Shown piece by piece: positions 33,570 to 56,688 of a stretch of 56,688 nt of DNA. This DNA comes from Solirubrobacteraceae bacterium. GTDB taxonomy: Bacteria; Actinomycetota; Thermoleophilia; Solirubrobacterales; Solirubrobacteraceae. The DNA is taken from contig DASXCR010000070.1 of assembly GCA_036491075.1 (NCBI GenBank), positions 1 to 56,688 on the forward strand, in the 5' to 3' direction. Positions within the stretch are counted from its first letter, which is position 1. Every line of letters begins with the position of its first letter. The notes below the pieces were generated by a model. The model saw only the letters and a list, made by a program, of their open reading frames with translations, made no database searches and was not told the DNA's origin. A program made the translations under genes and the position numbers.

Positions 33570-35438
33570 TCAGACGATGAAGGTGCTGCCGCCGCCCTCG
33601 AGCGGGTTGCGGATGCGCTCGGCGTCGGCGGTGCGTCCCGCGGCCTGGTAGGCGTTGGCGAGGTTGCCGCGACTGCCGACCGTGTCGGCGTGGTCGGCGC
33701 CGAGCGTGCGCTCGAGGGCCGAGACCAGCGGCTCGAGGATCGCGATCGCGTCGTCGAGGCGCCCCGCGTCCTGGTAGAGGATCGCGAGGTTGTTGCGGGT
33801 GCGCAGCGTGTTGGGGTGCTCGCTGCCGAGGCTGCGCTCACGGTCGGCGAGCAGCGGCTCGAGCAGCGCGATCGCGTCCTCGGTGCGTCCGGCATCCTGG
33901 TAGGCGTTGGCGAGGCTGTTGCGCATCAGCAGCGTGTTGGCGTGGTCGCTGCCGAGCGTCTCCTCGAGGCCGGCGAGCAGCGGCTCGAGGATCGCGATCG
34001 CGTCGTCGGCGCGCCCCGCGTCCAGGTAGGCGTTCGCGAGGCCGCCGCGCGTGCTGACCGTGTTCGGATGCTCCGCGCCGAGGATCCGCTCGCGGTCGGC
34101 GAGCAGCGGCTCGAGGATCGCGATCGCGTCGTCGGCGCGCCGGGCGGCGACGTAGGCGTTGGCGAGGTTGCCGCGGCTGGAGAGGGTGTCGGGGTGCTCG
34201 CTGCCGAGGGTCCGCTCGCGGTCGGCGAGCAGCGGCTCGAAGATCGCGATCGCGTCCGCCGTGCGTCCGGCGGCCTGGTAGGCGTTGGCGAGGTTGCCGC
34301 GGCTGGAAAGCGTGTCGGGATGGTCGGTGCCGAGGATGCGCTCGAGGTCGGCGATCAGCGGCTCGAAGAGCTCGATCGCCTCCTTGGATCGTCCCGCGGC
34401 CTGATGGGTGCTCGCGAGGTTGCCGCGGCTGGCGAGCGCGTCGGGGTGCTCGGCGCCGAGGATGCGCTCGAGGTCGGCGACGAGCGGCTCGAGGATCGTC
34501 AGCGCGTTCTTCGTGCGTCCGGCGGCCTGGTAGGCGTTGGCGAGGTTGCCGCGGCTGGCGAAGGTGTCGGGGTGCTCGGTGCCGAGGACGCGCTCGAGGT
34601 CGGCTACGAGCGGCTCGAGGATCGCGATCGCCTCCTTGGTGCGCCCGGCGGCCTGGTGCGCATTGGCGAGGTTGCCGCGCGTGCGCAGCGTGTTCGGGTG
34701 CTGCGCCCCGAGGATCCGGTCGCGGTCGGCGAGCAGCGGCTCGTAGATCGCGATCGCCTCCTGGGTGCGCCCGGCGGCCTGGTAGGCGTTGGCGAGGTTG
34801 CCGCGGGTGCGCAGCGTGTTCGGGTGCTCGGCACCGAGCGTCCCCTCCAGGTCGGCGAGCAGCGGCTCGTAGATCGCGATCGCGTCGTCGGCACGCCCGG
34901 CGGCCTGGTAGGCGTTGGCGAGGTTTCCGCGGGTGCTGAGCGTGTTCGGGTGCTGGGCGCCGAGGATCCGCCGCAGGTCGACCAGCAGCGGCTCGAAGAT
35001 CGCGATCGCGTCCTGGGTGCGTCCGGCGGCCTGGTAGGCGTTGGCGAGGTTGCCGCGGCTGGGGAGCGTGTCGGGATGCTGCGCGCCGAGGATCCGCTTG
35101 AGGTCGGCGAGCACGGGCTCGAGGATCGCGATCGCGTCGGCCGTGCGTCCCGCCGTCTGGTAGGCGCTGGCGAGGTTTCCGCGGGTGCGCAGCGTGTTGG
35201 CGTGTTCGGCGCCGAGGACACGCTCGAGGTCGGCGACGAGCGGCTCGAGGGTCGCGATCGCGTCCGTCGTGCGGCCGGCGTCCTGGTAGGCGTTGGCGAG
35301 GTTGTAGCGGGAGCGCAGCGTGCTCGGGTGCTCGGCGCCGCGGATCAGCTGGTGGTTGGCGACGAGCGGCTCGAGGGTCGCGATCGCGTCCTGGGGGCGT
35401 CCGACGGCCGGGTCTCGTCCCGCGTCCTGCTTGGTCAT
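33570..35438 (-). CDS. All-TPR protein: 14 tandem 42-residue (kinesin-light-chain-type, TPR_10/12) repeats
   Basis: Start chosen at MTKQDAGRDPAVGRPQD. Then 14 in-register copies of AIAILEPLLADRERILGAEHPNTLRTRGNLANAYQAAGRTxD, followed by a 17-aa tail. The longer ORF to 35828 has no coding bias upstream of 35438. Confidence 0.85.
   Translation of the reverse strand: MTKQDAGRDPAVGRPQDAIATLEPLVANHQLIRGAEHPSTLRSRYNLANAYQDAGRTTDAIATLEPLVADLERVLGAEHANTLRTRGNLASAYQTAGRTADAIAILEPVLADLKRILGAQHPDTLPSRGNLANAYQAAGRTQDAIAIFEPLLVDLRRILGAQHPNTLSTRGNLANAYQAAGRADDAIAIYEPLLADLEGTLGAEHPNTLRTRGNLANAYQAAGRTQEAIAIYEPLLADRDRILGAQHPNTLRTRGNLANAHQAAGRTKEAIAILEPLVADLERVLGTEHPDTFASRGNLANAYQAAGRTKNALTILEPLVADLERILGAEHPDALASRGNLASTHQAAGRSKEAIELFEPLIADLERILGTDHPDTLSSRGNLANAYQAAGRTADAIAIFEPLLADRERTLGSEHPDTLSSRGNLANAYVAARRADDAIAILEPLLADRERILGAEHPNTVSTRGGLANAYLDAGRADDAIAILEPLLAGLEETLGSDHANTLLMRNSLANAYQDAGRTEDAIALLEPLLADRERSLGSEHPNTLRTRNNLAILYQDAGRLDDAIAILEPLVSALERTLGADHADTVGSRGNLANAYQAAGRTADAERIRNPLEGGGSTFIV
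33624..35387. repeat. 126-bp tandem repeat array (14 copies) encoding the TPR units
   Basis: The same motifs recur every 126 nt: ggcgttggcgaggttgccgcg..., gcgatcgcgtc... and cagcggctcga(g/a)gatcgcgatcgc. No indels break the period. Confidence 0.85.
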
Positions 35439-35699
35439 GTTCGAGCTCCCGCTTTCGAAGTCCAGGTCGACGACGATCCCGCAGGCCGCCTCGCGTCGAA
35501 CCCTACGCCAGGGCAGGCGGCCCGCCAGGGTTGATACGTCAGCTTGCGCCTTCCGGGTCTCATGTCCTGCGGACATTCGTCCGATAGGAAGGTCATGGAC
35601 ACCGTCAGCCCGCGCCGACCGCAGCAGTGTGGTTACCCGCACCCCGATCAGCGGGTTGTCCACATTGCGCGGCCGCCGGCGCCCCGGCAGGCTGAGAAC

Positions 35700-35900
35700 A
35701 TGGCCCACGAGCTCACGACCGACCAGATGCGCGAGATCGTGCGATTGCGCCGGCGCAACCCGCGCGCCGAGGTGCTCGTGCATCACAAGCCGTGGGGGAT
35801 CATCGTCGAGGCGCGCCGGTCGGGACACGCGATCGAGCTCGAGCGCTTCGACTGGACCGGTGCGGTCACGCCCGACCGGCCGATCGCGCTGGCCGCGTAG
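35700..35900 (+). CDS. Small hypothetical protein (66 aa)
   Basis: MAHELTTDQMREIVRLRRRNPRAEVLVHHKPWGIIVEARRSGHAIELERFDWTG. GC3 bias is clean. Divergent from the TPR gene. No family recognised. Confidence 0.5.
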   Translation: MAHELTTDQMREIVRLRRRNPRAEVLVHHKPWGIIVEARRSGHAIELERFDWTGAVTPDRPIALAA

Positions 35901-35942
35901 CGCTCGCGGGCCGTAGCGCCACCGTCACCGCAGCGGCGCGGG

Positions 35943-44770: not shown

Positions 44771-45757
44771 CTACGCCCGCCGCGACAGCGAGACCGAGAA
44801 CAACCGGTCGGGGTCCGTGTAGAGCTCGACGAGCTCGAGACCCGCCGCCGAGAGGTCGCCGGACAGCTTCTCGGGCGTGAACTTCGCGCTGATCTCCGTG
44901 CGCAGCTCCTCGCGTGCGGCGAAGTCGATGTCAAGCGCGAGCTTGCCGATGTGCACCTGCTGCACGTCGGTCGCGCGCAGGCGCATCTCGATCCACTCGC
45001 GCTGGCGGTCGAAGAACGCGACGTGCTCGAACGCGCCGACGTCGAAGTTCGCATCGAGCTCGCGGTTGAGCACGTGCAGGACGTTGAGGTTGAACTGCGC
45101 CGTCACGCCCGCGCTGTCGTCGTACGCGGCCTCGATGACGCGCGGGTCCTTGACGAGGTCGGTGCCGAGCAGCAGGTGGCCATCCTCGCCGAGCACGTTG
45201 CGCAGGCCGCGCAAGAAGCGCCGCCGGCTGCCGGGCGGGAAGTTGCCCAGCGTGCCGCCGAGGAACGCGACCAGCCGCGGGCCGGCGGGCTCGGGCAGGT
45301 GCGACAGGTGGCGCTCGAAGTCGCCGACGACCCCGTAGACCGACATCCCGGGGTACTCCCGGACAAGCGTCTCGGCGGCGGCGTGGACGGTCGTCGCGCT
45401 GACGTCGACCGGGACGTAGCGCTCGAGCGTGCCCGCCGACTGCATCGCGTCCAGCAGGACGCGCGTCTTGGACGCGGACCCCGAGCCGAGCTCGACGAGC
45501 TCGACGGCGCCCGTGCGCTCGACGACGTCCTCGGCGCTGCGCTCGAGGATCAGCCGCTCGGTGCGCGTCTGGTAGTACTCGGGCAGCTCGCAGATCGCGT
45601 CGAACAGCTCCGATCCGCGGGCGTCGTAGAAGTGCTTCGGCGGCAGCTCCTTGAGCGGACGCGTGAGCCCGTCGAGCACGTCGTCGGCAAGCGTGCGCTC
45701 GTCCCCGGGACCGAGGTAGGAGTGCACCTCGACGGTGCCCTGGAGGATCGGCTCCAT
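44771..45757 (-). CDS. egtD: L-histidine N(alpha)-methyltransferase EgtD
   Basis: Real start at MEPILQGTVEVHSYL, inside ORF 44771..46411. LPPKHFYDARGSELFDAICELPEYYQTRTE, LVELGSGSASKTRVLLDA, FLGGTLGNF, TAQFNLNVL and VAFFDRQREWIEMRL are EgtD family blocks. Confidence 0.9.
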   Translation of the reverse strand: MEPILQGTVEVHSYLGPGDERTLADDVLDGLTRPLKELPPKHFYDARGSELFDAICELPEYYQTRTERLILERSAEDVVERTGAVELVELGSGSASKTRVLLDAMQSAGTLERYVPVDVSATTVHAAAETLVREYPGMSVYGVVGDFERHLSHLPEPAGPRLVAFLGGTLGNFPPGSRRRFLRGLRNVLGEDGHLLLGTDLVKDPRVIEAAYDDSAGVTAQFNLNVLHVLNRELDANFDVGAFEHVAFFDRQREWIEMRLRATDVQQVHIGKLALDIDFAAREELRTEISAKFTPEKLSGDLSAAGLELVELYTDPDRLFSVSLSRRA

Positions 45758-46878
45758 CACGTCACGTCCTTTGCCAGTCGGACGCCGGCGAAGATCTGCC
45801 GGCGCAGGGGGAGATCCCAGTTGCGGAAGGTGGTGGAGCGCATGCGCTCGGCGGTCGCCCAGGACGATCCGCGCAGCACGCGGTAGGCGTCCCCATAGAA
45901 GACCTCGGAGTACTCGCGATACGGGTGCGCCTCGAAGCCGGGATAGCCGTGGAAGCGGGTGGAGGTCCACTCCCAGGCCGTGCCGGTGTCCTGCAAGGGC
46001 TCCTGGGTCCAGGTCGCCGCCTTCTCCCACTCCGCCTCGGTAGGAAGTCTCGCGTTGCGCGAGCGAGCGAAGGCGTCGGCCTCGAACCAGGAGACGTGCA
46101 GGGCGGGGTGCTCGTCGTGCTCCGCCGTCCCGTCCGCCGTCCAGCCCTCGGGGTGAGAGATGTCGTACTCCTCCTTCCACGACCAGCCCTCCGCCGACCA
46201 CCACTCGCGGCGCTCGTAGCCCCCGCCCTCGACGAAGTGCATCCAGGAGCCGTTGGTCACGGGGCGCCGCGCGATGCGAAAGGCGGGGACCTCGACCGCG
46301 TGGCGAGGGCGCTCGTTGTCGAACGCGAAGCCCTCGGGCCCGGCGCCCATCTCGAATGGACCGCCGGGGACGTGGATCCAGTCGCCGAAGGGCGACGGTG
46401 CGACACGGCATGACGCGTCGTCCGCGGGGCGCCCACCCGGCAGGCCGCCGAGGAACAGCGTCTGGCGCATCGTCTCGTTGTGCTGGGCCTCGTGGCGGAT
46501 GACCATCTCGAACAGCGTGCCGTCGCCCGAGCCGAGGCGGTCGAGGATCTGCAGCGTGCGCTCGCGCACGGCCGCGATGTACGCGAAGACGTCGTCGCCG
46601 CGCAGGAACGGGATCTCGCCGCGCACGGCGCGCGGGGTCTCGAAGGCGTCGTAGAGGTCGGCGAGGTCTCCGCGCAGCAGCGGCTCGCCGCCGTGGCGGT
46701 GCACGAGCCAGAGATCCTCGTACGCGGCGATGTGGCCCAGATCCCAGTCCAGTGGGCTCATCAGCGGGTGCTGCACGCGCTCGAGCTCGGCGTGATGCAG
46801 CGGCGCCACGAGGGCGAGCGTGTTCTCGCGCACCTCGCGCAGGGCGTCCGCGAAGGCTGTGGCCGGTACGGTCGCCAT
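45757..46878 (-). CDS. egtB: Ergothioneine biosynthesis sulfoxide synthase EgtB (DinB_2 plus FGE-sulfatase domains)
   Basis: 373 aa. N-terminal MSPLDWDLGHIAAYEDLW and RHEAQHNETM (DinB-type His ligands). C-terminal FDNERPRHAVEVPAFRIARRPVTNG, HVSWFEADAFARS, LPTEAEWEKA and RGSSWAT. Its stop overlaps the egtD ATG by 1 nt. Confidence 0.85.
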   Translation of the reverse strand: MATVPATAFADALREVRENTLALVAPLHHAELERVQHPLMSPLDWDLGHIAAYEDLWLVHRHGGEPLLRGDLADLYDAFETPRAVRGEIPFLRGDDVFAYIAAVRERTLQILDRLGSGDGTLFEMVIRHEAQHNETMRQTLFLGGLPGGRPADDASCRVAPSPFGDWIHVPGGPFEMGAGPEGFAFDNERPRHAVEVPAFRIARRPVTNGSWMHFVEGGGYERREWWSAEGWSWKEEYDISHPEGWTADGTAEHDEHPALHVSWFEADAFARSRNARLPTEAEWEKAATWTQEPLQDTGTAWEWTSTRFHGYPGFEAHPYREYSEVFYGDAYRVLRGSSWATAERMRSTTFRNWDLPLRRQIFAGVRLAKDVT

Positions 46879-46960
46879 CCGTGGTCAGCGTACCCGGCCG
46901 CGCCTGTCGGAATCCTGAAGCGTCCGTGTTGGCGGACGGCCGTTGCGTAGGCGCCGGCGG

Positions 46961-48001
46961 TCAGGACGACAGAGCGTCGAGCGCCGTGTCGACGTCCGCG
47001 TCGGTGTTGTAGACGTGCCACGAGACGCGCACGCGGCCGCCGCGCATCGCGGCGCTGACGCCGGCGCGCGCGAGCTTCTCCTCGGCGCCGGGGATGTCCG
47101 CCGAGACGATCGCGCTGTCGGACGCGGGCATGTCCAGGCCGACGCGGAAGCGGTTGGCGAGTGCGACATCGTGGGCGTATACGGCCGGGATGCCGATTCG
47201 GTTGAGCAGTTCGAGCGCGGGTAGCGTGCCGACCCACGAGAACCACGCGGGGGAGGTGTCGAGCCGGCGGGCGGTGTCCGCCAGGCGCAGCGGCGGGCCG
47301 AAGTAGCTCGCGTGGACGTCCGCGCCGGCGTACCAGCCGGCGCTGTGCGGGACGATCCGCTCGAGCCACTCGTCGCCGACGGCCATCAGCGACGTGCCGC
47401 GCGGCGACATGAGCCACTTGTAGGCGCTGCACATGACCGCGCCGAAGCGCGTCGCGTCGATCGGCAGCCAGCCGCACGCCTGGGTCGCGTCGAGCAGCGT
47501 GAGGGCGCCGTGGTGGGCCGCCGCCGTCGCGATCGCGTCGAGGTCGGCGACCTCGCCCGTGCTCATCTGGACCGCGCTGAACGCGACGACGTCGGTGCTG
47601 GCGTCGATCGCCTCGGCGAGGCGGTCGGGTGCGACGGTCGTGACCGTGACGCCGCGATCCTCCTGGACGAGGAACGGGAACAGCGTCGAGGTGAACTCGA
47701 CGTCGGGGACGAGGACGTTCGTGCCCGCAGGCAGCGACGCCGCCACGAGGCCCGCGAAGCCCGAGACCGTCGAGCCGATCGCGACCCTGTCCGGCGTCGT
47801 GTTGACCATCCGCGCGAACGCCTCGCGCGCGCCCTCGCTGCTCTCGCCCCAGTGCTCCCAGCTCGTGCGCCCGCCGCGCCAGTCGGCGAGCGCTGCCTGC
47901 AGGGCGTCGAAGCCGTCGCGCGGCGGCAGGCCGTAGCTCGCGGTGTTGAGGTAGACGCCCTCGGGCGTCCACTGCTCGCGGGCGTCGGCGATGGAGAGCA
48001 T
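46961..48001 (-). CDS. Class V aminotransferase-fold PLP enzyme (candidate EgtE-like C-S lyase)
   Basis: Start chosen at MLSIADAREQWTPEGVYLNTASYG. LLDATQACGWLPID and CSAYKWLMSPRG (PLP lysine). The function is inferred only from its position directly upstream of egtB-egtD. Confidence 0.7.
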   Translation of the reverse strand: MLSIADAREQWTPEGVYLNTASYGLPPRDGFDALQAALADWRGGRTSWEHWGESSEGAREAFARMVNTTPDRVAIGSTVSGFAGLVAASLPAGTNVLVPDVEFTSTLFPFLVQEDRGVTVTTVAPDRLAEAIDASTDVVAFSAVQMSTGEVADLDAIATAAAHHGALTLLDATQACGWLPIDATRFGAVMCSAYKWLMSPRGTSLMAVGDEWLERIVPHSAGWYAGADVHASYFGPPLRLADTARRLDTSPAWFSWVGTLPALELLNRIGIPAVYAHDVALANRFRVGLDMPASDSAIVSADIPGAEEKLARAGVSAAMRGGRVRVSWHVYNTDADVDTALDALSS

Positions 48002-48085
48002 GCGCTGGATCCTTACGGACGGGCGCCCGGGTTGCGGTGTCGTGCCGGGGGCCGCTCGCATCCGCGACCCGCAGCGGCCGCGGTG

Positions 48086-49531
48086 TCAGGCGCCCGCGTA
48101 CAGCACGACCCTGCCGGCGCGCTTGGTGATGGCGAAGCCGTCCGTCTCGTGGTCGGAGACCTCGCCGTCGCGCGCGGTGCGCAGCGGGCCGTCGAGCGAG
48201 CGCACCCGAAGTTCGCCGGCGGTGAAGCAGCGCAGCGACGAGCTGCGCGTCGGGCGGCCGGTGACGATCGCGGCGAGCAGACGCAGGCGCGCGAGGCGGG
48301 GAGCGGCGTCGAGCAGCCGCACGTCGAAGCGGCCGTCGTCGAGGCGCTCGCGAGCCGCCGGCGCCGGACCAGCCGGCAGGTAGCGGCAGTTGCCGATGAA
48401 GATCAGCCAGACGCGCGCGGGCACGCCGTCGATCTGCACGTCGCAGGGCTCGGCGTGGCGCAGCGTGCGCAGGCCGGCGACGACGGTCGCCGCGCGCTTG
48501 CCGATCCTGTCCTCGAGCCGCTCGCGCCGCGCCACGAACTCGGGATAGCCGCCGAAGCTCGCGGTGTTCGCGAACGGCTCGCCGCCGAGGTCGCCGACGT
48601 CCGCCGCGACCGCGCGGCCGGCGCGCAGTGCGTCCAGCGCCTCGTCGACGCTCTCGAGGCCGAGGTCGCGGCAGAGGTGGTTGAGCGTCCCGCCGGGCAG
48701 CACGAGCAGCGGCAGGCCCGCGGCCAGCGCGACGCCGATCGCCGCGTTCGCCGACCCGTCGCCGCCGGCGACCCCGAGCACGCGTGTGCCCGGGGCCGCG
48801 GCTGCGGCACGCAGGCAGTCGAGCAGGTCCTCGTCCTCGCGGCGCTCGACGACGCGGACGCGGGGAAGGCGCTCGCGCAGGCGGTCGGGATCGAGCTCGG
48901 AGCCGGCGTCGGGGTTGACGACGAGCGCGAGCCCGTCGCCGTCGGGCAGGGCGGGCGCGTCCACGTGCGGCTGGCGCGGCCCGGCGGCATGCGGCGGGAC
49001 GGGTATCGGCCGCAGGCGCAGCGACCCCGCCGCGACGGCCGTGCCGATCGCGGCGCCCGCGAGCACGTCGCCGGGGTAGTGCGCACCGACGTACACGCGC
49101 GAGAAGCCGACGGCGCCGGCGAGCGCGAGCAGCGGGCCGCGCGCCGCGCCCGGCAGCTCGGCGGCGGCGCCGGCCGCGAAGGCGAACGCCGAGGCGCTGT
49201 GCCCCGAGGGAAACGACGTCGAGATCGGCATGTGGCGGGGCAGGCGGATGTCGGGAAAGCTCGAGAGCACCGGCCGAGCACGGCGAAACACGCGCTTGGC
49301 GGGCTGGTTGGCGACAAGCGATGCGACGGCGATGCAGGACAATCCCCGTGCCGCGGCGCGGCGGCCGCGCCGGCCGCCGGTTGCGGCGAGGATCGCGGCC
49401 ACGAGCCCCCACAGCAGCGAGTGGTCGGCGAAGTCGCTCAGCCGCCTGATCGCTGAGCCGAACGGCACCGCGCGGCGGCTGATGACGACGAACAGGCGGC
49501 GGTCGAGCGCGCGGAGGCCGGAGAGGGACAT
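48086..49531 (-). CDS. Fusion protein: PAP2 (type-2 phosphatidic-acid phosphatase) membrane domain plus diacylglycerol/lipid kinase catalytic domain
   Basis: Real start at MSLSGLRALD, inside the 1249-aa artefactual ORF. PAP2 motifs KRVFRRARP, PSGHSA and SRVYVGAHYPGDV. Kinase part VLGVAGGDGSANAAIG and LLVLPGGTLNHLCRDLG. Confidence 0.85.
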   Translation of the reverse strand: MSLSGLRALDRRLFVVISRRAVPFGSAIRRLSDFADHSLLWGLVAAILAATGGRRGRRAAARGLSCIAVASLVANQPAKRVFRRARPVLSSFPDIRLPRHMPISTSFPSGHSASAFAFAAGAAAELPGAARGPLLALAGAVGFSRVYVGAHYPGDVLAGAAIGTAVAAGSLRLRPIPVPPHAAGPRQPHVDAPALPDGDGLALVVNPDAGSELDPDRLRERLPRVRVVERREDEDLLDCLRAAAAAPGTRVLGVAGGDGSANAAIGVALAAGLPLLVLPGGTLNHLCRDLGLESVDEALDALRAGRAVAADVGDLGGEPFANTASFGGYPEFVARRERLEDRIGKRAATVVAGLRTLRHAEPCDVQIDGVPARVWLIFIGNCRYLPAGPAPAARERLDDGRFDVRLLDAAPRLARLRLLAAIVTGRPTRSSSLRCFTAGELRVRSLDGPLRTARDGEVSDHETDGFAITKRAGRVVLYAGA

Positions 49532-49732
49532 CGCGCATCCATACCCGATCGGGCAGATCGCACCGATCGAGCCATCGCCAGATCGGCACCGGAGCGCGAC
49601 GCCCACCTCGCGTGCACCGGAGGTGACGCGCAGTGGACGGACGTTCGATTTCGAGGTCCGTTCGCCCCCAATTCCGGGCAGACGGACCCCAACCGGCGAC
49701 GTCGCGCCGCCGGTTGATCTAGCTTCGCTTGC

Positions 49733-51748
49733 ATGACGTGGATCGGCGAGCCCACTGACGTGGCTGTGGCCGGCACGCCGGCGACCAGTTCGCTGCCCGC
49801 CGCGGCCGTCGCGCAAACGCCGATGCTCGACCTCGAGGTGCACCCGGCGCTGGCCGCCGGGCGCCGCGCGCGCTACACGGCGGTGCTCGTCAACCGCGGC
49901 TCCACCGAGATCGAGGCATGGCTGTCGGTCGATCCCGGCGAGGCGGGCTTGCGCTGCGTGGTCATCCCGCCGCGGATGCTGATCGCCCCCGGTCAGGCGC
50001 GCCAGGCCGAGGTGCGGCTGCGCCCGCGCCGGCCGCAGCTCGTGCGCGGCGAGCGCCAGCACGACGCGCAGATCCGGGTCAGCGGCCAGGACGGGCCGGT
50101 CGCGGCGGTGCGGCGCGTGATCTTCGTCCAGCAGCGTGCGCTGCCGCTCTGGCTGCTCGCCCCGCTCGCGGTGCTCGTCGCGGCCGCGGCGTTCGCGCTC
50201 ACGCTGGCGCCCAAGCACGCGACCGTCCCGAGCGTGCAGGGTGCGGCGGACGTCGCGACCGCGGAGCGGGCGCTGCACGCCGCCGGTCTGCAGCTGGACC
50301 CGCAGCTGCGCTCGCGCACGACGACGAGCGCGCGGCCCGGCACGATCCTCGACCAGATCCCCGATCCCGGCACGCGCGTGGACCGGGGCTCGCGCGTGAC
50401 GCTGCTCGTCGCGATCGGCTCGACGCGCGCGGTCACGCCGTCGCTGGACGGCCAGACGCCGGCGCGCGCGGCGCAGATCCTGCGCGCGGCGGGCCTCGCG
50501 GCGGGCCCGGTGCTGCCCGACGGCGCCCCGAGCGCGAGCGTCGTGGCGAGCCAGCTGCCGGTGGCCGGCGCACGCGTGCCGGCCGGCACGGCGGTGACGG
50601 TGATCGTGCGGCCCGCGCGAGCGGGCGCGTCGACGGCGCCCGGCGGCGCGGCGCCGAGCGCTGGCACGGCGGCGAGCACGGGCAGGGCAGCGAAGGTGCC
50701 GGCGATCGGCGGGCGCAGCGTGACGGCCTACGCCCGCGCGGTCGCCGCCGCGGGGCTCGTGCCGCGGATCGTGCGCCAGGTCGGCACGCAGCCGATCGGC
50801 ACGCTGCTCACCGCGCAGCCCGCCGCCGGGACCGCGCTGCGGTCCGGCGACCGCGTGCGGCTGCTCGTCTCCGCCGGCGTGCCGCAGCTCGCGTTCGACA
50901 CCGGCAGCGTGCTGCGCGTCTTCGACCCGACCCGCGGCAAGACGGTACGCGAGGCGGCGCCGCCGCAGGGCACCGCCGTCGAGCCGTCGTGGTCGCCCGA
51001 CGGTCGCCGGCTGCTGTATCGCGTCGGCACGCGGCTGCTGCTCGTCTCCGCGCGGCTCGCCGATCGCGGGCGCGTCGTCTACGACGGCACGGCGAAGTAC
51101 GCGGCGGCGACGTTCGCGCCCGCCCCGGCGGATAATGTCATCGCGCTCGTGCGACGGACCGGTGACGACGGCGATCTCTGCTTCGCCCGCGTGGGGGCCG
51201 GCATGCTGCGCCCGCGCTGCGCTGCCGACCCGCGCTGGGACCTCGGCCGCGAGATCTCGTGGCGCGCGGGCGGGCGCGAGCTGCTCGTCTTCGGCGTGCG
51301 CCGCGGCCAGCCGGGGCGCTTCGGGATCCTGCGCTACACGAGCGCACGGGCGTTCTCGACGAACCCGGCCGACTGGCACGGCCAGATCGTGACCGACACG
51401 TCGGTGAGCGGGCAGGGCGTCATCGCCGCGGCTTATTCCCCGTCGGGGACGAGCGTCGCGCTCGTCTCGAACGTCGGCCTGCCGCGCTTTCAGCTGCGGA
51501 TCGCGGGCGCCGGCGACCTGCGCACCGCGACCAGTCTTCCGCTTCCCGTGCGCGCGTGCGAGGTCGCATGGCGACCCGACGGCCGCGAGCTCGCCGTCGT
51601 GCAGAGCGACGACACGTGCAGTCGCGCGGTCGGCGAGATCGTGCGACTCGACCCGCAGCATCCGCGCACGACGACGACGGTGTCCAGCGGCGGGCGCCAC
51701 CCGGCGTATCAGCCGCTGACGTACACGGGCCCGAAGGGCGTGTCGTGA
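49733..51748 (+). CDS. Single-pass membrane protein: cytoplasmic Ig-like N-domain, three PASTA domains, PD40/TolB-like beta-propeller
   Basis: 671 aa. TM helix LPLWLLAPLAVLVAAAAFALTLAP. PASTA-like units VPSVQGAADVATAERALHAAGL...PGTILDQIPDPGTRVDRGSRVTLLV, TPSLDGQTPARAAQILRAAGL...VTVIV and VPAIGGRSVTAYARAVAAAGL...VRLLV. Propeller motifs EPSWSPDGRRLLY, ISWRAGGRELLVF, AAYSPSGTSVALV and VAWRPDGRELAVV. No kinase or transpeptidase domain. Confidence 0.8.
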   Translation: MTWIGEPTDVAVAGTPATSSLPAAAVAQTPMLDLEVHPALAAGRRARYTAVLVNRGSTEIEAWLSVDPGEAGLRCVVIPPRMLIAPGQARQAEVRLRPRRPQLVRGERQHDAQIRVSGQDGPVAAVRRVIFVQQRALPLWLLAPLAVLVAAAAFALTLAPKHATVPSVQGAADVATAERALHAAGLQLDPQLRSRTTTSARPGTILDQIPDPGTRVDRGSRVTLLVAIGSTRAVTPSLDGQTPARAAQILRAAGLAAGPVLPDGAPSASVVASQLPVAGARVPAGTAVTVIVRPARAGASTAPGGAAPSAGTAASTGRAAKVPAIGGRSVTAYARAVAAAGLVPRIVRQVGTQPIGTLLTAQPAAGTALRSGDRVRLLVSAGVPQLAFDTGSVLRVFDPTRGKTVREAAPPQGTAVEPSWSPDGRRLLYRVGTRLLLVSARLADRGRVVYDGTAKYAAATFAPAPADNVIALVRRTGDDGDLCFARVGAGMLRPRCAADPRWDLGREISWRAGGRELLVFGVRRGQPGRFGILRYTSARAFSTNPADWHGQIVTDTSVSGQGVIAAAYSPSGTSVALVSNVGLPRFQLRIAGAGDLRTATSLPLPVRACEVAWRPDGRELAVVQSDDTCSRAVGEIVRLDPQHPRTTTTVSSGGRHPAYQPLTYTGPKGVS

Positions 51749-53076
51749 GCCGGCGCCGCCGCACGCTCGCCGCGATGGCCGCGACCGCCGCGATCGGCGC
51801 TCTGCCCGTGGTGGCGCCGGGCGCGGCGTTCGCACAGACCGCGGTCGTCGGCGTGGAGGGCGCCGCCAGCGGGCCGCAGCCGTTGTGGGTGCCCGATCCC
51901 GCGCAGGCGGCCGCGGCGCAGGAGACGCAGCCGCCGACCGAGGACGTCCAGGTGACCGCCCCGGTCACGTCGTCGGACACAGGGGTCGCCGAGGACCCGT
52001 CGCACATCGCCGTGGCGCACTGGATGGCGAGCGCGGCGCGCGCGGCCGGCCTGCCCGGCGAGCTGCCGGTGATGGCCGGACTCGTCGAGTCCGGCCTGCG
52101 CAACCTGCCCTACGGCGACGCCGACAGCGTCGGGTTCTTCCAGATGCGCCTCAGCGTGTGGAACGGCGGTGCGTACGAGGGCTTCCTGACCGATCCCGAC
52201 CTGCAGCTGCAGTGGTTCACCGATCATGCGCTCGCGGTGCGCGCGACCCGGATCGCGGCGGGCGACGGCACGTTCGGCGGCGACCCGGCGACGTGGGGCG
52301 ACTGGATCGCGGACGTCGAGCAGCCCTACGCGGGCTACCGCGGCCGCTACCAGACGCGCCTGGACGAGGCGCGCACGCTGCTGGCGCTGCCGGCGCCGTC
52401 GGTCGCGCCGTTTCAGATGGCGCTGACGGTCGGGGGCCCGGCGGCACCGGCCACCGATGCGGGCGCCGATCCGGTCGCGCAGCAGGTGCTCGACGACAGC
52501 GCGATCACGCTCGACCCGCGGGCGGCCGGGGACCTGACGGCGGGGCGGGTGGACCCGCGCGTCAGCGCCGACCTGCTCGCCGCCGCAGCGCAGTCGCCGA
52601 TCGCGATCTCCGTGATCGAAACCGGTCACTCCTATTACACGGTGAACGGCAGCGTGTCCAATCACTCCTCCGGGCGGGCCGCCGACATCAGCATGGTGGG
52701 CGGGGCGCCGGTGAGCCCGGGCAACGCGGCCGCGCACCGCCTCGCGCTCGCGCTCGGCCGGCTGCCCGAATCGATCCGCCCGACGGAGATCGGGTCGCCG
52801 TGGGCGATCGCCGATCCCGCGTACTTCACCGACGCCGACCACCAGAATCACATCCACGTCGGCTTCGACGATCCCGCGGGAGCGGATGCCACGGCGGCGG
52901 CGGCGACGGCGGCCGCCGCGACGGTCGATGACGCCGGTGCGGCCGCGCCGGCGACGCTGACGGCCGCGCCCTCAGCCCGCGACAGCGCGTCCGCGCCCGC
53001 CGAGCCGGCCTTCAGCGCGCATCCGGCCCGGTCTGCGACCGACGACGGCGATCCACGTTTCGAGGCCAAGCCGTGA
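51745..53076 (+). CDS. Secreted muralytic enzyme candidate: SLT-like N-domain plus LAS-type (M15/VanX/hedgehog-fold) zinc peptidase C-domain
   Basis: GTG start overlaps the upstream stop (GTGA). Signal peptide RRRRTLAAMAATAAIGALPVVAPGAAFA. LVESGLRNLPYGDADSVGFFQMR resembles the SLT E-S...G-L-M-Q block. SNHSSGRAADIS...HQNHIHVGF fits the LAS H-x(n)-D...H-x-H zinc site. Confidence 0.65.
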   Translation: MSRRRRTLAAMAATAAIGALPVVAPGAAFAQTAVVGVEGAASGPQPLWVPDPAQAAAAQETQPPTEDVQVTAPVTSSDTGVAEDPSHIAVAHWMASAARAAGLPGELPVMAGLVESGLRNLPYGDADSVGFFQMRLSVWNGGAYEGFLTDPDLQLQWFTDHALAVRATRIAAGDGTFGGDPATWGDWIADVEQPYAGYRGRYQTRLDEARTLLALPAPSVAPFQMALTVGGPAAPATDAGADPVAQQVLDDSAITLDPRAAGDLTAGRVDPRVSADLLAAAAQSPIAISVIETGHSYYTVNGSVSNHSSGRAADISMVGGAPVSPGNAAAHRLALALGRLPESIRPTEIGSPWAIADPAYFTDADHQNHIHVGFDDPAGADATAAAATAAAATVDDAGAAAPATLTAAPSARDSASAPAEPAFSAHPARSATDDGDPRFEAKP

Positions 53077-56000
53077 GCGCGGTCGGCGTGGCGGGGGCGC
53101 GATCGCGTCCGCGACCTCGGGCGATCGCCGTCTCCGTGCTCGGTGCGCTGCTGCTGGCGCTGGCGCTCGCTACCCCCGGACAGGCGGCGGTGACGCGAAC
53201 GTGCACGCCCAACCCGGACCCGAGCACGTCGACGATGTCGATCCAGATCTCCGGTGGCGCCGCGACCACCACCACGATCTCCGTCGCGGACGATGTCGTG
53301 ACGATCGACGCGGACCCGCCCGAGCCCGCCTGCCCGGGGCTCGACGCGATCACCATAAACGGCGACGCCAACGACAACACGGTCACCTACACGGATACGA
53401 CGTCCGACCCCGTGCAGGTGACCGCGACCCTCCTCGGCGGCGACGACACGTTCATCACCCACAGCAGCCAGGCGGTGAACGTCGATGGTGGATCGGGCGA
53501 CGACACGCTCGACGGCGACCAGGGTGACGACACCTTGATCGGCGGATCGGGCGACGACGTGCTCGACGGCGGCGGCGGCGACGATCTGCTGATGCCGGGG
53601 CTCGGCGGCGGTTCGAACACGGGAGGCACGAACTCGGCGACCGGTGGCGACACGTTGTCCTACTCGGACGTCGTCACCGGGGTGAACGCCGACCTGAGCG
53701 CGCCGTCGCCGACGGCGACCGGGGCAGGCTTGAATCAGACGATCGCGGGCATCGAGAACCTGACGGGTGGATCGGGGACCAACACGCTGACCGGCGACGC
53801 GAACGAGAACGTCCTGATCGGTGGACCCGGTGTCGACACGTTGTCCGGCGGAGACGGGGACGACACGCTGAGCGGCCTCGGCGGCGCCGACGTCCTCAAC
53901 GGCGGCGCCGGCGACGACCTGCTGCTGCCGGGGCTCGGCAACGGCTCGAACACGGGTGGGACGGACGGGACCCCTGGTGGTGCGCACGGCGCGAACGGCG
54001 ACACGGTGTCCTACGCGGACATCGGCTCGGTCGCCGTGACCGCGGATCTCAGCGCGCCGACGCCGGCGGCGACGGGCGCCGGGCTCAGTCAGACGCTCGT
54101 CGGGATCGAGAACCTGACCGGTGGCGACGGCGACGACGTGCTGACGGGGGACCGCAACGACAACATCCTCTCGGGTGGCGCCGGCGACGACACGCTGTCC
54201 GGTGGCGCCGGGGACGACGTCCTCGACGGCGACGCCGGCGACGACCTCCTGCTGCCCGGCCTGGGAGGCGGCTCGAACACCGGCGGGACGGACGGCACCG
54301 CGGGTGGCGCGCACGGCGCGAGCGGCGACACGGTGTCCTACGCGGACATCGGGACCGTGCCGGTGACGGCGGATCTGAGCGCGCCGTCGCCGGTGGCGAC
54401 GGGCGCTGGGCTGAGTCAGACGCTCGTCGGGATCGAGAACCTGACCGGTGGTGACGGCGACGACGTGCTGACCGGCGACGGCGCCGACAACGTCCTGTCC
54501 GGCGGCGCGGGCGACGACACGCTGAGCGGCCTCGACGGCGACGACGTGCTCGACGGCGGCGCCGGGGACGATCTGCTGCTGCCCGGTCTGGGCGGCGGTT
54601 CGAACACGGGCGGCACGGACGGCACGCCCGGCGGCGCGAACGGCGCGGGCGGTGACACCGTGTCCTACGCGAACCTCGCGATCGGAGTGACGGCGGACCT
54701 GAGCGCCGCGTTGCCCAATGCCACGGTCGGCGCGTCGAGCCAGTCGATCGCGACCGTCGAGAACCTGACGGGTGGCGCCGGGAGCAACACGCTGACCGGT
54801 GACGCGAACGCCAACGTCCTCACCGGCGGACCGGTCGGCGACACGCTGTCCGGTGGCGACGGGGACGACACCTTGAACGGGCTCGGCGGCGACGACGTGA
54901 TCGACGGCAACGACGGGGACGACACGCTGAGCGGCGCGGCGGGCGACGACACGCTCGACGGCGGTAACGGCGACGACCTGCTGATGCCCGGACCGGGCGC
55001 GGGCACGAGCACCGGCGGCGCCGACGGGACCGCGGGCGGTGCGCACGGCGCGAGCGGCGACACGGTCTCCTACGCCGACGTCGGGACGGTCGCGGTGACC
55101 GCCGACCTGGGCGCCCCGGCCCCGAACGCGACGGTGGGTGCGACGAGCCAGACGCTGACGGGAATCGAGAACCTGACGGGCGGCGACGGCGACGACGTGC
55201 TCACGGGCGACGGGGGCAACAACATCCTGTCCGGCGGGATGGGCGACGACACGTTGAGCGGTCTCGCCGGCGACGACGTCCTCGACGGCGGTGACGGCGA
55301 CGACCTGCTGGCGCCGGGGCTTGGCGGCGGTTCGAACACCGGCGGCACGGACGGGACCGCCGGCGGCGCGCACGGTGACAGCGGTGACACCGTGTCCTAC
55401 GCGAATATCGGTGCAATCGGAGTGACGGCCGATCTCAGTGCCGCGACGCCGACCGCGACCGGGGCCGGCCTGAGTCAGACACTGGTCGGGATCGAGAACC
55501 TCACCGGTGGCGACGGCGACGACGTGCTGACAGGTGACGGCAACGACAACGTCCTGTCCGGTGGTGCCGGCGAGGACACGCTCAGCGGGCTCGGCGGAGA
55601 CGACGCCATCAGCGGCGGCGACGGCGACGACACGCTGAGCGGCGCGGCCGGCGACGACACGCTCGACGGTGGCGACGGCGACGACCTGCTGATGCCGGGG
55701 CTGGGGAACGGGTCGAACACGGGCGGCACGGACGGGACCGCGGGAGGCGTCCACGGCGCGACGGGTGACACCGTCTCCTACGCGGACATCGGCACGGTCG
55801 CCGTGACGGCCGATCTGAGCGCCGCGACCCCGACGGCGACGGGGGCGGGCCTGAACCAGTCGCTGACGGGAATCGAGAACCTCACGGGGGGGGACGGCAA
55901 CGACGTGCTGAGCGGCGACTCCGCGACGAACATCCTGTCGGGTGGGACGGGCGACGACACGTTGAGCGGGCTCGGCGGCGACGACGTCATCAGCGGCGGC

Positions 56001-56688
56001 GATGGCGACGACACCCTGAGCGGCGCGGCCGGCGACGACACGCTCGACGGCGGCAACGGAGACGACCTGCTGATGCCCGGCCTCGGCAGCGGCTCGAACA
56101 CCGGCGGCACGAACGGCACGGTCGGTGGCGCGCATGGCGCGGCGGGTGACACCGTGTCCTACGCCGACGTCGGGACGGTCGCGGTGACGGCCGATCTGAG
56201 TGCCGCGACCCCGACCGCGACGGGCAGCGGACTCAACCAGACGCTGGTGGGCATCGAGAACCTCACCGGTGGCGACGGTGACGATGCGCTCACAGGTGAC
56301 TCCGGGAAGAACATCCTGTCGGGTGGCGCCGGCGACGACACGCTGAGCGGGCTCGGCGACGACGACACGATCAGCGGCGGCGACGGTGACGACACGCTGA
56401 ATGGCGCGGCCGGCGACGACGTCCTCGACGGCGGCAACGGAGACGACCTGCTGATGCCCGGGCTGGGCAACGGCTCGAACACCGGCGGAACCGACGGGAC
56501 CGCGGGCGGGGCGCACGGCGCGACGGGTGACACGGTCTCCTACGCGGATATCGGCGCGGTCGCGGTGACGGCCGATCTGAGCGCCGCGACGCCGACCGCG
56601 ACGGGCAGCGGACTCGACCAGACGCTGGTGGGCATCGAGAACCTCACCGGTGGCGACGGTGACGATGCGCTCACAGGTGACTCCGGGA
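53073..56688 (+). CDS. Giant secreted calcium-binding repeat protein (hemolysin/RTX-type GGxGxD nonapeptides in larger modules); 3' end beyond the window
   Basis: Not in the ORF track because there is no stop in the window. GTG 53073 overlaps the upstream stop (GTGA). Translation: VSAVGVAGARSRPRPRAIAVSVLGALLLALALATPGQAAV (signal peptide), then repeated DTVSYADIGTVAVTADLSAPTPAATGAGLSQTLVGIENLTGGDGDDVLTGDxxDNxLSGGAGDDTLSGLGGDDVLDGGAGDDLLLPGLGGGSNTGGTDGTAGGAHGA. The 1222-aa minus-strand ORF 52848..56516 is its antisense artefact. Confidence 0.85.
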   Translation, partial: MSAVGVAGARSRPRPRAIAVSVLGALLLALALATPGQAAVTRTCTPNPDPSTSTMSIQISGGAATTTTISVADDVVTIDADPPEPACPGLDAITINGDANDNTVTYTDTTSDPVQVTATLLGGDDTFITHSSQAVNVDGGSGDDTLDGDQGDDTLIGGSGDDVLDGGGGDDLLMPGLGGGSNTGGTNSATGGDTLSYSDVVTGVNADLSAPSPTATGAGLNQTIAGIENLTGGSGTNTLTGDANENVLIGGPGVDTLSGGDGDDTLSGLGGADVLNGGAGDDLLLPGLGNGSNTGGTDGTPGGAHGANGDTVSYADIGSVAVTADLSAPTPAATGAGLSQTLVGIENLTGGDGDDVLTGDRNDNILSGGAGDDTLSGGAGDDVLDGDAGDDLLLPGLGGGSNTGGTDGTAGGAHGASGDTVSYADIGTVPVTADLSAPSPVATGAGLSQTLVGIENLTGGDGDDVLTGDGADNVLSGGAGDDTLSGLDGDDVLDGGAGDDLLLPGLGGGSNTGGTDGTPGGANGAGGDTVSYANLAIGVTADLSAALPNATVGASSQSIATVENLTGGAGSNTLTGDANANVLTGGPVGDTLSGGDGDDTLNGLGGDDVIDGNDGDDTLSGAAGDDTLDGGNGDDLLMPGPGAGTSTGGADGTAGGAHGASGDTVSYADVGTVAVTADLGAPAPNATVGATSQTLTGIENLTGGDGDDVLTGDGGNNILSGGMGDDTLSGLAGDDVLDGGDGDDLLAPGLGGGSNTGGTDGTAGGAHGDSGDTVSYANIGAIGVTADLSAATPTATGAGLSQTLVGIENLTGGDGDDVLTGDGNDNVLSGGAGEDTLSGLGGDDAISGGDGDDTLSGAAGDDTLDGGDGDDLLMPGLGNGSNTGGTDGTAGGVHGATGDTVSYADIGTVAVTADLSAATPTATGAGLNQSLTGIENLTGGDGNDVLSGDSATNILSGGTGDDTLSGLGGDDVISGGDGDDTLSGAAGDDTLDGGNGDDLLMPGLGSGSNTGGTNGTVGGAHGAAGDTVSYADVGTVAVTADLSAATPTATGSGLNQTLVGIENLTGGDGDDALTGDSGKNILSGGAGDDTLSGLGDDDTISGGDGDDTLNGAAGDDVLDGGNGDDLLMPGLGNGSNTGGTDGTAGGAHGATGDTVSYADIGAVAVTADLSAATPTATGSGLDQTLVGIENLTGGDGDDALTGDSG
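53649..56688. repeat. Long tandem coding repeats (351, 327, 327, 405, 327, 381, 381, 381... nt modules)
   Basis: The module-start motif GAC-AC(G/C)-GT(G/C)-TCC-TAC recurs in frame at 53649, 54000, 54327, 54654, 55059, 55386, 55767, 56148 and 56529. About 90 nt starting near 56220 and near 56601 are nearly identical. Confidence 0.9.

Follow-up and report, generated by a model that had tools for sequence, protein, structure and literature searches.

The stretch of DNA analysed here, hereafter the window, is the entire 56,688-bp contig DASXCR010000070.1 of a Solirubrobacteraceae bacterium (GenBank assembly GCA_036491075.1). It ends in three consecutive plus-strand genes, designated g1, g2 and g3, which encode a PASTA/β-propeller membrane protein, a putative peptidoglycan hydrolase and a giant repeats-in-toxin (RTX) protein, respectively (Table 1). 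An earlier note, made from the sequence alone, had proposed these genes, their coordinates and the two GTGA stop/start overlaps that join them, and codon-position GC (GC3) frame plots bore this out: in a window with a GC content of 70-78%, the reading frame changes exactly at both proposed junctions, and the RTGA form of the overlap is conserved. Since the window is the whole contig and the assembly ends within the gene, g3 is incomplete. A Shine-Dalgarno (SD)-like sequence lies 7-10 nt upstream of each start, GAAGGG in the case of g2 and GAGG in the case of g3. A crude survey of ~54 adjacent open reading frame (ORF) pairs across the window found in-frame RTGA overlaps only at the g1/g2 and g2/g3 junctions. 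Both junctions carry the overlap in ~17 of 18 orthologous loci, and at the g2/g3 junction the RTGA together with its SD is kept in every orthologous locus examined. No terminator-like site was found in the scanned region 49300-56688, and the promoter scan was also empty, which is weak evidence at ~75% GC. With overlaps that are conserved and the only ones of their kind in the window, the earlier note was essentially correct in arguing for a single operon, and we tentatively regard g1-g2-g3 as one chromosomal cell-envelope operon of this bacterium.

Table 1. Features of the g1-g2-g3 locus and of its surroundings in the window.
Feature	Coordinates	Strand	Length or residues	Basis or remark
g1	49733-51748	+	671 aa	ORF; GC3 frame plot
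g2	51745-53076	+	443 aa, GTG start	GC3 frame plot
g3	53073-56688	+	at least 1205 aa	GC3 frame plot; 3' part missing at contig end
GTGA stop/start overlap g1/g2	51745-51748	+		SD-like GAAGGG within last g1 codons
GTGA stop/start overlap g2/g3	53073-53076	+		SD-like GAGG within last g2 codons
g1 N-terminal domain, possibly Ig-like	49733-50134	+	aa 1-134	weak matches; precedes transmembrane helix
g1 single transmembrane helix	50135-50221	+	aa 135-163	Kyte-Doolittle, one segment, score 2.43
g1 three PASTA domains	50222-50875	+	aa ~164-227, 232-294, 316-381	Pfam PF03793
g1 C-terminal β-propeller, TolB/PD40-like	50885-51745	+	aa 385-671	PD40, TolB matches
g2 signal peptide	within 51745-53076	+	aa 1-30, ends AFA/Q	signal prediction
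g2 PLWVPDP linear motif, disordered N-terminal linker	51880-51900	+	aa 46-52	near-invariant, 24 + 89 sequences
g2 N-domain, lysozyme-like / SLT-GEWL-like fold	51991-52389	+	aa 83-215	AlphaFold2 model, Foldseek
g2 C-domain, LAS-type (Hedgehog/DD-peptidase clan) zinc peptidase-like	52462-52878	+	aa 240-378	motif, sub-threshold HMM
g2 two (A)EP(R)F motifs, disordered C-terminal tail	53002-53061	+	aa 420-423, 436-439	alignment
PAP2 phosphatase-diacylglycerol-kinase catalytic domain-YegS_C fusion gene	48086-49531	-		divergent, upstream of g1
Ergothioneine-type set (EgtD, EgtB, EgtE-like)	44771-48061	-		beyond the fusion gene
BTAD/TPR protein gene	33570-35924	-	784 aa	BTAD domain, TPR_12 array

The earlier note had read three PASTA domains in g1, and the Pfam search clearly agreed, with three stretches of PF03793 at 86.2 bits against a gathering cutoff of 23.2. 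The g1 profile also matches the PASTA structures of PknB and Stk1 (PDB 3py9, 2kui) at 1e-10. A kinase or transpeptidase is lacking, as had been claimed: no Pkinase match to a Hanks-type kinase domain was found in Pfam, and the PASTA kinase model NF033483 reached 70.9 bits against a cutoff of 450, covering only model positions 343-563, its PASTA part. Likewise, neither Pfam nor NCBIfam gave a match to a transpeptidase or penicillin-binding protein (PBP) dimer domain, so that g1 is not a class B PBP. Because PASTA domains are extracytoplasmic, g1 should adopt an N-in topology, in which the domain preceding the single transmembrane (TM) helix is presumably cytoplasmic. The flanking domains named in the earlier note proved less distinct. 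The N-terminal domain has only weak Ig-like matches (FixG_C, E = 0.01; HYDIN/VesB Ig, E = 0.016), and the PD40 match of the propeller, in one stretch, is above threshold by a small margin (22.4 bits versus a cutoff of 20.9); a clear PD40 match (2.4e-8) is found in the g1 paralog of locus L018. The propeller region further shows weak profile matches to TolB chains in the PDB (6e-4 to 1e-3), and the TolB equivalog model TIGR02800 scores 17.3 bits (E = 0.0017) against a cutoff of 343.15, which leaves g1 outside this family.

Within g1, conservation peaks in the propeller, which shows 64-80% identity among orthologs compared to 35-67% for the N-terminus and contains four invariant cysteines (C483, C496, C609 and C629); these fit an extracytoplasmic placement of the domain. 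About 100 orthologs of g1 are present in databases, and they carry only the name “PASTA domain-containing protein”. Altogether, g1 is predicted to be a bitopic membrane protein without a kinase and may serve as a receptor or scaffold, the propeller of which would be TolB-like and disulfide-bonded.

The g2 protein starts with a predicted signal peptide. A Tat signal was considered for it and rejected, as its RRRR run does not correspond to a conserved twin-arginine motif among the orthologs. The 511 database relatives of g2 are all “hypothetical”, have no Pfam domains and come almost exclusively from Solirubrobacteraceae/Thermoleophilia metagenomes. A phmmer search of g2 against PDB sequences yielded only a spurious match to a PTS transporter (E = 0.38), and the g2 profile found nothing there at E <= 10. 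Alignments of 24 and 89 sequences revealed two globular domains, with disordered linkers between them. The first AlphaFold2 (AF2) model of full-length g2, with a predicted local distance difference test (pLDDT) score of 61.9, was too poor, its fold matches all having E > 0.1, and the second, based on the 89-sequence alignment, reached a pLDDT of 87.7. Judged from the two domains described below, g2 is very probably a secreted two-activity peptidoglycan hydrolase of a family absent from domain libraries, the activity being a prediction from sequence and model.

Structural similarity search using Foldseek revealed that the N-domain of g2 best resembles the GH184 muramidase (PDB 8b2e), with a probability of 1.0, a TM-score of 0.61 and an E-value of 0.026. 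The other PDB matches include MltE, MltD, Slt70, MltF, phiKZ gp144 and T7 gp16, and muramidases and lytic transglycosylases make up most of the top 50. Although 8b2e is included in the PDB set that was searched with the g2 profile at E <= 10, no profile match to it was found; the likeness to GH184 is a fold resemblance only. Against a library of viral structures, the g2 model matched SLT and LT_GEWL proteins as well as lysin domains of tape-measure proteins. The best of these matches (E = 2.3e-3) is to a Lysin A from an actinophage, the name of which refers to an L-Ala-D-Glu peptidase domain; this match is assigned to neither the N- nor the C-domain of g2. In the model, E115-S116 is located at the C-terminal end of helix 106-116, an arrangement which we take to resemble that of family-1 lytic transglycosylases. 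Among the orthologs that share the gene order of the window (type A, see below), E115 is conserved to at least 90%, with Gln in one paralog, and the equivalent Glu is less than 90% conserved across the wider set of N-domains; the GFFQM motif is near-invariant. From these features, the N-domain might cleave glycan strands, a prediction that we make with reserve.

The C-domain of g2 is characterized by the conserved residues S305-x-H307-x-x-G-x-A-x-D314, E348, H366 and H369-x-H371, which read S305-N-H307-S-S-G-R-A-A-D314 and H369-I-H371 in the window. The four residues H307, D314, H369 and H371 do not vary in the type A alignments, and their conservation in wider sets is still at least 90%. The pattern agrees with the zinc-ligand signature of LAS peptidases, H-x(3-6)-D ... 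H-x-H, in its M15 form SxHxxGxAxD. Scans of 25 diverse copies of the C-domain gave sub-threshold Pfam matches to Extensin-like_C in 17 (best 3e-4), M15_4 in six, M15_3 in three and HH_signal in two, all of which we take to be members of the Hedgehog/DD-peptidase clan. A search of a representative library found the C-domain in 1218 representative clusters; the best 150 matches are close relatives only, and 105 of them were scanned for domains. Among these 105, M15_4 (9) and Extensin-like_C (6) again matched below threshold, and the co-occurring domains comprise SLT (12), SLT_2 (12), CHAP (11), NlpC/P60 (7) and M23 (5). A tblastn search of the C-domain against 50,697 phage records gave no match. 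The C-domain is thus a candidate zinc peptidase, which possibly cuts stem peptides or cross-links.

Outside the two domains, g2 has short conserved motifs in regions that appear to be disordered. The PLWVPDP motif lies in a segment with pLDDT < 50 in the first AF2 model, and in the C-terminal tail the residues E420, P421, F423, P437 and F439 are each at least 90% conserved. The second copy of EP(R)F overlaps the GAGG SD of g3. More generally, the last codons of g1 (P-K-G-V-S, window 51730-51748) carry the SD of g2, and those of g2 (R-F-E-A-K-P, window 53056-53076) carry the SD of g3; the conservation of the C-terminal residues may therefore partly reflect a constraint at the nucleotide level.

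The g3 protein was described in the earlier note as more than 1200 aa of RTX-type Ca-binding modules, in full agreement with the 22 stretches of HemolysinCabind (PF00353; 284.5 bits, E = 1e-86) that Pfam detects in it. An N-terminal Sec-type signal and a short Cys-containing N-domain are followed by at least nine modules of 109-135 aa, each of which consists of 3-6 GGxGxD nonapeptides and a DTVSYAD...IENLTGG unit. In total, g3 has 42 nonapeptide cores, and it is composed of 23.6% Gly and 14.4% Asp, with 185 D+E against 7 K+R; at the DNA level, repeats of 327 and 381 nt lie within the gene. As the window copy lacks the C-terminus, C-terminal features were read from the orthologs. Full-length orthologs, 1450-3000 aa in size, contain a metal motif like that of MopE, and their C-terminus is formed by a conserved, very basic domain of ~120 aa with four Cys. 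This domain has no match in the PDB and only eight, fragmentary, relatives in databases; a role as wall anchor is a guess. A second, smaller RTX/MopE paralog is often found 3' of the g3 ortholog. The giant RTX genes of L001, L002, L006 and L016 look frame-shifted or split in the metagenome-assembled genomes, probably because the repeats were misassembled or missequenced, and the lengths of these four orthologs are therefore unreliable. An RTX toxin exported by a type I secretion system (T1SS) was considered for g3 and rejected: the signal is N-terminal and of Sec type, the NCBIfam models for RTX toxins and serralysins all remained far below cutoff, the basic C-terminus of the orthologs is unrelated, and no T1SS ATP-binding cassette (ABC) or membrane fusion protein (MFP) genes are present in the scanned flanks.

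A scan for g2 relatives, with one genome per species, gave 178 loci, of which 80 were kept and L081 was added. They represent three types of clusters. Type A, which comprises the window, L001-L017, L019, L029 and L081, has g1, then g2, then the giant RTX gene. This triad recurs in ~20 loci of Solirubrobacteraceae, with all three genes present wherever the downstream sequence suffices. In the ~15 loci with enough sequence, g3 is neither lost nor displaced, although the gene upstream of g1 is variable. In seven type A loci (L004, L005, L011 and L014-L017), a gene for a LuxR-type response regulator lies ~2-4 kb 3' of the g3 ortholog (e.g. L015:19085-21014), followed by a phage-tail-sheath-like gene and a gene for an eCIS_core (DUF4157) protein, which could constitute a contractile-injection-system locus beside the triad. 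The flanks of L009 and of L081, the nearest relative, show no such genes, and the window stops short of the corresponding region.

Type B has a different composition and was found in ~45 loci; among its hosts are the cultured Solirubrobacter soli, Ca. S. pratensis, members of the Gaiellaceae and further taxa. Its first gene encodes a ~1000-aa protein with a Zn-ribbon, an Ig-like region, a TM helix, three PASTA domains and a propeller; the second encodes a Zn-ribbon, an FHA domain and an intramembrane HExxH protease, which resembles the daptide protease (5.7e-41, below cutoff). The third gene encodes a multi-hydrolase that lacks a signal peptide and starts with a domain resembling the NHLP-type leader of ribosomally synthesized and post-translationally modified peptides (RiPPs). 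In S. soli, this multi-hydrolase (up to 1992 aa) combines two LAS domains, three copies of the g2 N-domain, CHAP and NlpC/P60. A Ser/Thr kinase gene, in most cases of opposite orientation, adjoins the hydrolase gene, and a LuxR-type regulator is also nearby. The cluster of S. soli DSM 22325 (L060:1096-14891) is an example, and similar ones occur in L018 and L020-L080. Taken together, the gene content of type B looks like a system in which phospho-signalling controls a wall hydrolase that is processed or exported by means of its leader. Two multi-hydrolases contain divergent LAS-like copies (L032:9971-10438 and L073:4057-4452) in which the SxHxxGxAxD and HxH residues are lost; these copies are probably non-catalytic pseudo-enzymes. 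Type C consists of stand-alone N-domain proteins.

Since one contig may harbour both types (L009 and L067), A and B are paralogous systems; they differ in the RTX gene, which only type A possesses. The comparison of the two types provides independent evidence that PASTA/propeller proteins and g2-type hydrolase domains work together, and the partnership of g1 and g2, which recurs in the RTX-less type B clusters, is a firmer signal than the full triad.

No published description of the triad or of its sister cluster was found in the literature, consistent with the statement of the earlier note that no system of this kind had been described. Nevertheless, each protein has parallels. Similar to the PASTA Ser/Thr kinases PknB, Stk1 and StkP, to which its similarity extends to the sequence level, g1 has one TM helix followed by tandem extracellular PASTA domains. 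These kinases differ from g1 in possessing a kinase domain, whereas g1 has a small, possibly Ig-like cytoplasmic part and a TolB-like propeller after the PASTA domains. The propeller bears a weak profile likeness to TolB of the Tol-Pal system; however, g1 has neither the Tol-Pal context nor the N-domain of TolB, and its propeller, which comes from a Gram-positive lineage, is joined to PASTA domains. TolB propellers bind their partners via short linear motifs. In StkP, the PASTA4 domain docks and positions the hydrolase LytB (PMC10434722). This is a precedent for a PASTA ectodomain that positions a hydrolase, with the difference that the proposed partner of g1 is encoded in the same operon.

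The predicted two-activity layout of g2, a lysozyme-like domain followed by a LAS-type metallopeptidase, is the same as that of phi29 gp13, the C-domain of which is presumably a LytM-type LAS endopeptidase. However, phi29 gp13 is not among the top 50 fold matches of g2, the C-domain motif of g2 is Hx6D...HxH (M15/Hedgehog type) and not the Hx3D of M23, and g2 is a cellular, Sec-exported protein, whereas gp13 is part of the virion. In the literature, the N-terminal catalytic domain of phi29 gp13 is the structure closest to GH184 (PMC10394673).

At the level of concept, the operon shares with EssH of the type VIIb secretion system (T7SSb) and with the lytic transglycosylases of type III and type IV secretion systems (T3SS, T4SS) and flagella that a hydrolase is co-encoded with a large envelope-crossing protein. 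In staphylococci, EsaA requires the dedicated hydrolase EssH in order to span the wall (PMC13059805). Unlike the locus studied here, those systems encode a secretion machine, whereas g3 has an ordinary Sec signal; moreover, EssH is a CHAP enzyme, unlike g2. As for g3, its GGxGxD β-roll arrays and its acidic, Gly/Asp-rich composition are shared with RTX surface or S-layer proteins such as Caulobacter RsaA and with RTX toxins. Those proteins carry a C-terminal T1SS signal, whereas g3 has an N-terminal Sec signal and a monoderm actinobacterial host, and the terminal basic 4-Cys domain of its orthologs is confined to the g3 family. What is new here is a hydrolase family missing from annotation, while the principle, hydrolases controlled by membrane partners, is of a known kind.

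Starting from the gene structure, the domain content, the conserved coupling and the recurrent PASTA/propeller-hydrolase linkage, we infer binding partners, enzymatic specificities and a cargo relationship as follows. The PASTA domains of g1 would bind nascent or uncross-linked peptidoglycan and thereby place g1 at sites of wall synthesis. The ectodomain of g1, most likely its conserved propeller, would dock g2, an interaction that may use the PLWVPDP and EPRF motifs in the disordered linkers. Once docked, g2 would cleave glycan and peptide bonds within a defined patch of the wall only, and the remodelled patch would most plausibly let the co-translated giant RTX protein cross the wall and stay on it. 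As a whole, a wall hydrolase operon guided by a PASTA/propeller protein and including a giant RTX protein is the explanation that we favour, though with some hesitation. Its last step, that the local breach of the wall serves the passage or anchoring of g3, is rather doubtful.

Several observations weigh against this reading. The EgtD/EgtB/EgtE-like flank, which will be described below, is also syntenic in the type A genomes, with 70-93% identity. The synteny of the triad in ~20 related loci therefore partly reflects shared ancestry and, taken alone, is weak evidence of function. As type B clusters have no RTX gene, the hydrolase pair evidently needs no RTX cargo. For g2, scans with Pfam and NCBIfam gave no match above threshold, and all Foldseek E-values against the PDB exceed 1e-3. 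SLT (PF01464) matched neither g2 nor, even at E <= 10, any of 25 N-domain homologs; the sub-threshold LAS-clan match of g2 itself reaches 13.4 bits against a cutoff of 25, which leaves it outside the curated families, and no LAS structure is among the top 50 PDB fold matches for the C-domain. The gene starts call for caution as well. The database gene caller places the start of g2 at ATG 51775 (P0001, 433 aa), the JGI start of the g3 ortholog in L081 is a GTG located 108 nt further downstream, and GTG 53088 is an equally acceptable in-frame start for g3. With the later called starts of g2 and the g3 ortholog, the arginine-rich charged n-region of the signal peptides is lost. The start codons of g2 and g3 are putative, and the tight coupling of the genes stands with either start of g3.

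The absence of curated matches also bears on the earlier note, which had seen in g2 an SLT-like block combined with a LAS-type zinc peptidase signature. By profile HMM, PASTA was found in g1, and LAS and SLT were formally missed in g2, an outcome which the earlier note had listed among those that would speak against its reading. The SLT-like block is recovered at the level of the fold by AF2 and Foldseek, albeit with weak E-values, and the LAS signature at the level of the motif and of sub-threshold clan matches, but no HMM is above threshold for either. We keep both assignments on account of the structure, the motif, the sub-threshold clan matches and the association with other hydrolase domains.

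The main rival is that g1-g2 form a housekeeping autolysin module for growth, division or separation of cells, a streamlined paralog of the kinase/FHA cluster, with g3 as a co-transcribed but independent adhesin or S-layer-like protein. It is a distinct possibility, if not a probable one. Type B clusters indeed pair PASTA/propeller and hydrolase domains with a Ser/Thr kinase and an FHA protein and without RTX; the conserved synteny of the flanks means that the adjacency of g3 could be historical; and, as is generally known, unfolded RTX chains exported by Sec could pass the wall unaided. On this account, however, the overlap and SD maintained at the g2/g3 junction in all orthologs examined would be unexpected, as would the constant presence of g3 in loci where the gene on the other side of g1 varies.

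An antagonism or predation module is less likely than the autolysin, and we consider it quite improbable. Such a module would secrete g2 to lyse other bacteria and use g3 as an adhesin or toxin of the RTX kind, and g1 would act in sensing or self-protection. Phage tail lysins, e.g. phi29 gp13, typically combine a glycosidase with a LAS peptidase, and the tail-sheath-like and eCIS_core genes lie a few kb downstream in seven orthologous loci. By contrast, they are missing from the flanks of L081 and L009, the operon has no immunity-like small gene, neither g2 nor g3 has a toxin or delivery domain, the surroundings are chromosomal housekeeping genes, and the kinase/FHA-type regulators of the paralogous cluster suggest an endogenous control of the wall. 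The suggestion that g2 is an inactive or binding protein with merely structural motifs, in an operon for surface or structural proteins only, is likewise less likely than the autolysin and very improbable: the C-domain has no significant HMM or fold match and L032 and L073 prove that copies without the motifs exist in the family, but the conservation of the zinc ligands across type A and wider relatives, that of E115 in type A, and the consistent co-occurrence of the domain with bona fide hydrolase domains speak for catalysis.

Returning to the PASTA/propeller-guided hydrolase, its most specific form is improbable as a whole. Here g1 would be a novel type of non-kinase PASTA receptor that senses the condition of the wall through its PASTA domains and the propeller of which captures PLWVPDP/EPRF of g2 and thereby gates the wall breach for export or anchoring of the RTX protein; in the sister system, the NHLP leader and the FHA-linked intramembrane protease would release a seven-domain hydrolase under Ser/Thr-kinase control. 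If this were true, g1-g2-g3 would be a Sec-dependent actinobacterial functional counterpart of the dedicated T7SS, T3SS and T4SS hydrolases. How Gram-positive bacteria confine autolysins and pass giant proteins through a thick wall is only partly understood, known cases being StkP-LytB, FtsEX-PcsB/RipC and EssH. Judging by the operon and its sister cluster, Thermoleophilia may have a lineage-wide solution: a kinase-less PASTA/propeller protein would be hard-wired to multi-activity hydrolases, in hosts that are mostly uncultured. Moreover, the two predicted catalytic domains overlooked by Pfam and NCBIfam are candidates for annotation resources.

Of the loci compared, the window and L081 share the divergent PAP2-diacylglycerol-kinase fusion gene next to g1, and other genes take this position in other relatives. 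Beyond it lies the ergothioneine-type set, in which EgtD is identified by its Methyltransf_33 match (8.6e-111), EgtB by DinB_2 and FGE-sulfatase, and the EgtE-like protein as a class-V aminotransferase. Further flanking genes encode MFS and SDR proteins as well as lipid-related and other housekeeping functions. An origin from a mobile element or prophage was rejected in view of these ergothioneine, MFS, SDR and lipid flanks, which are syntenic in relatives. At a greater distance from the operon, the window encodes a 784-aa protein in which a BTAD transcriptional-activator domain is combined with a very long TPR array (TPR_12, 14 stretches, E = 5e-128), and this protein resembles an actinobacterial AfsR/SARP-like regulator.

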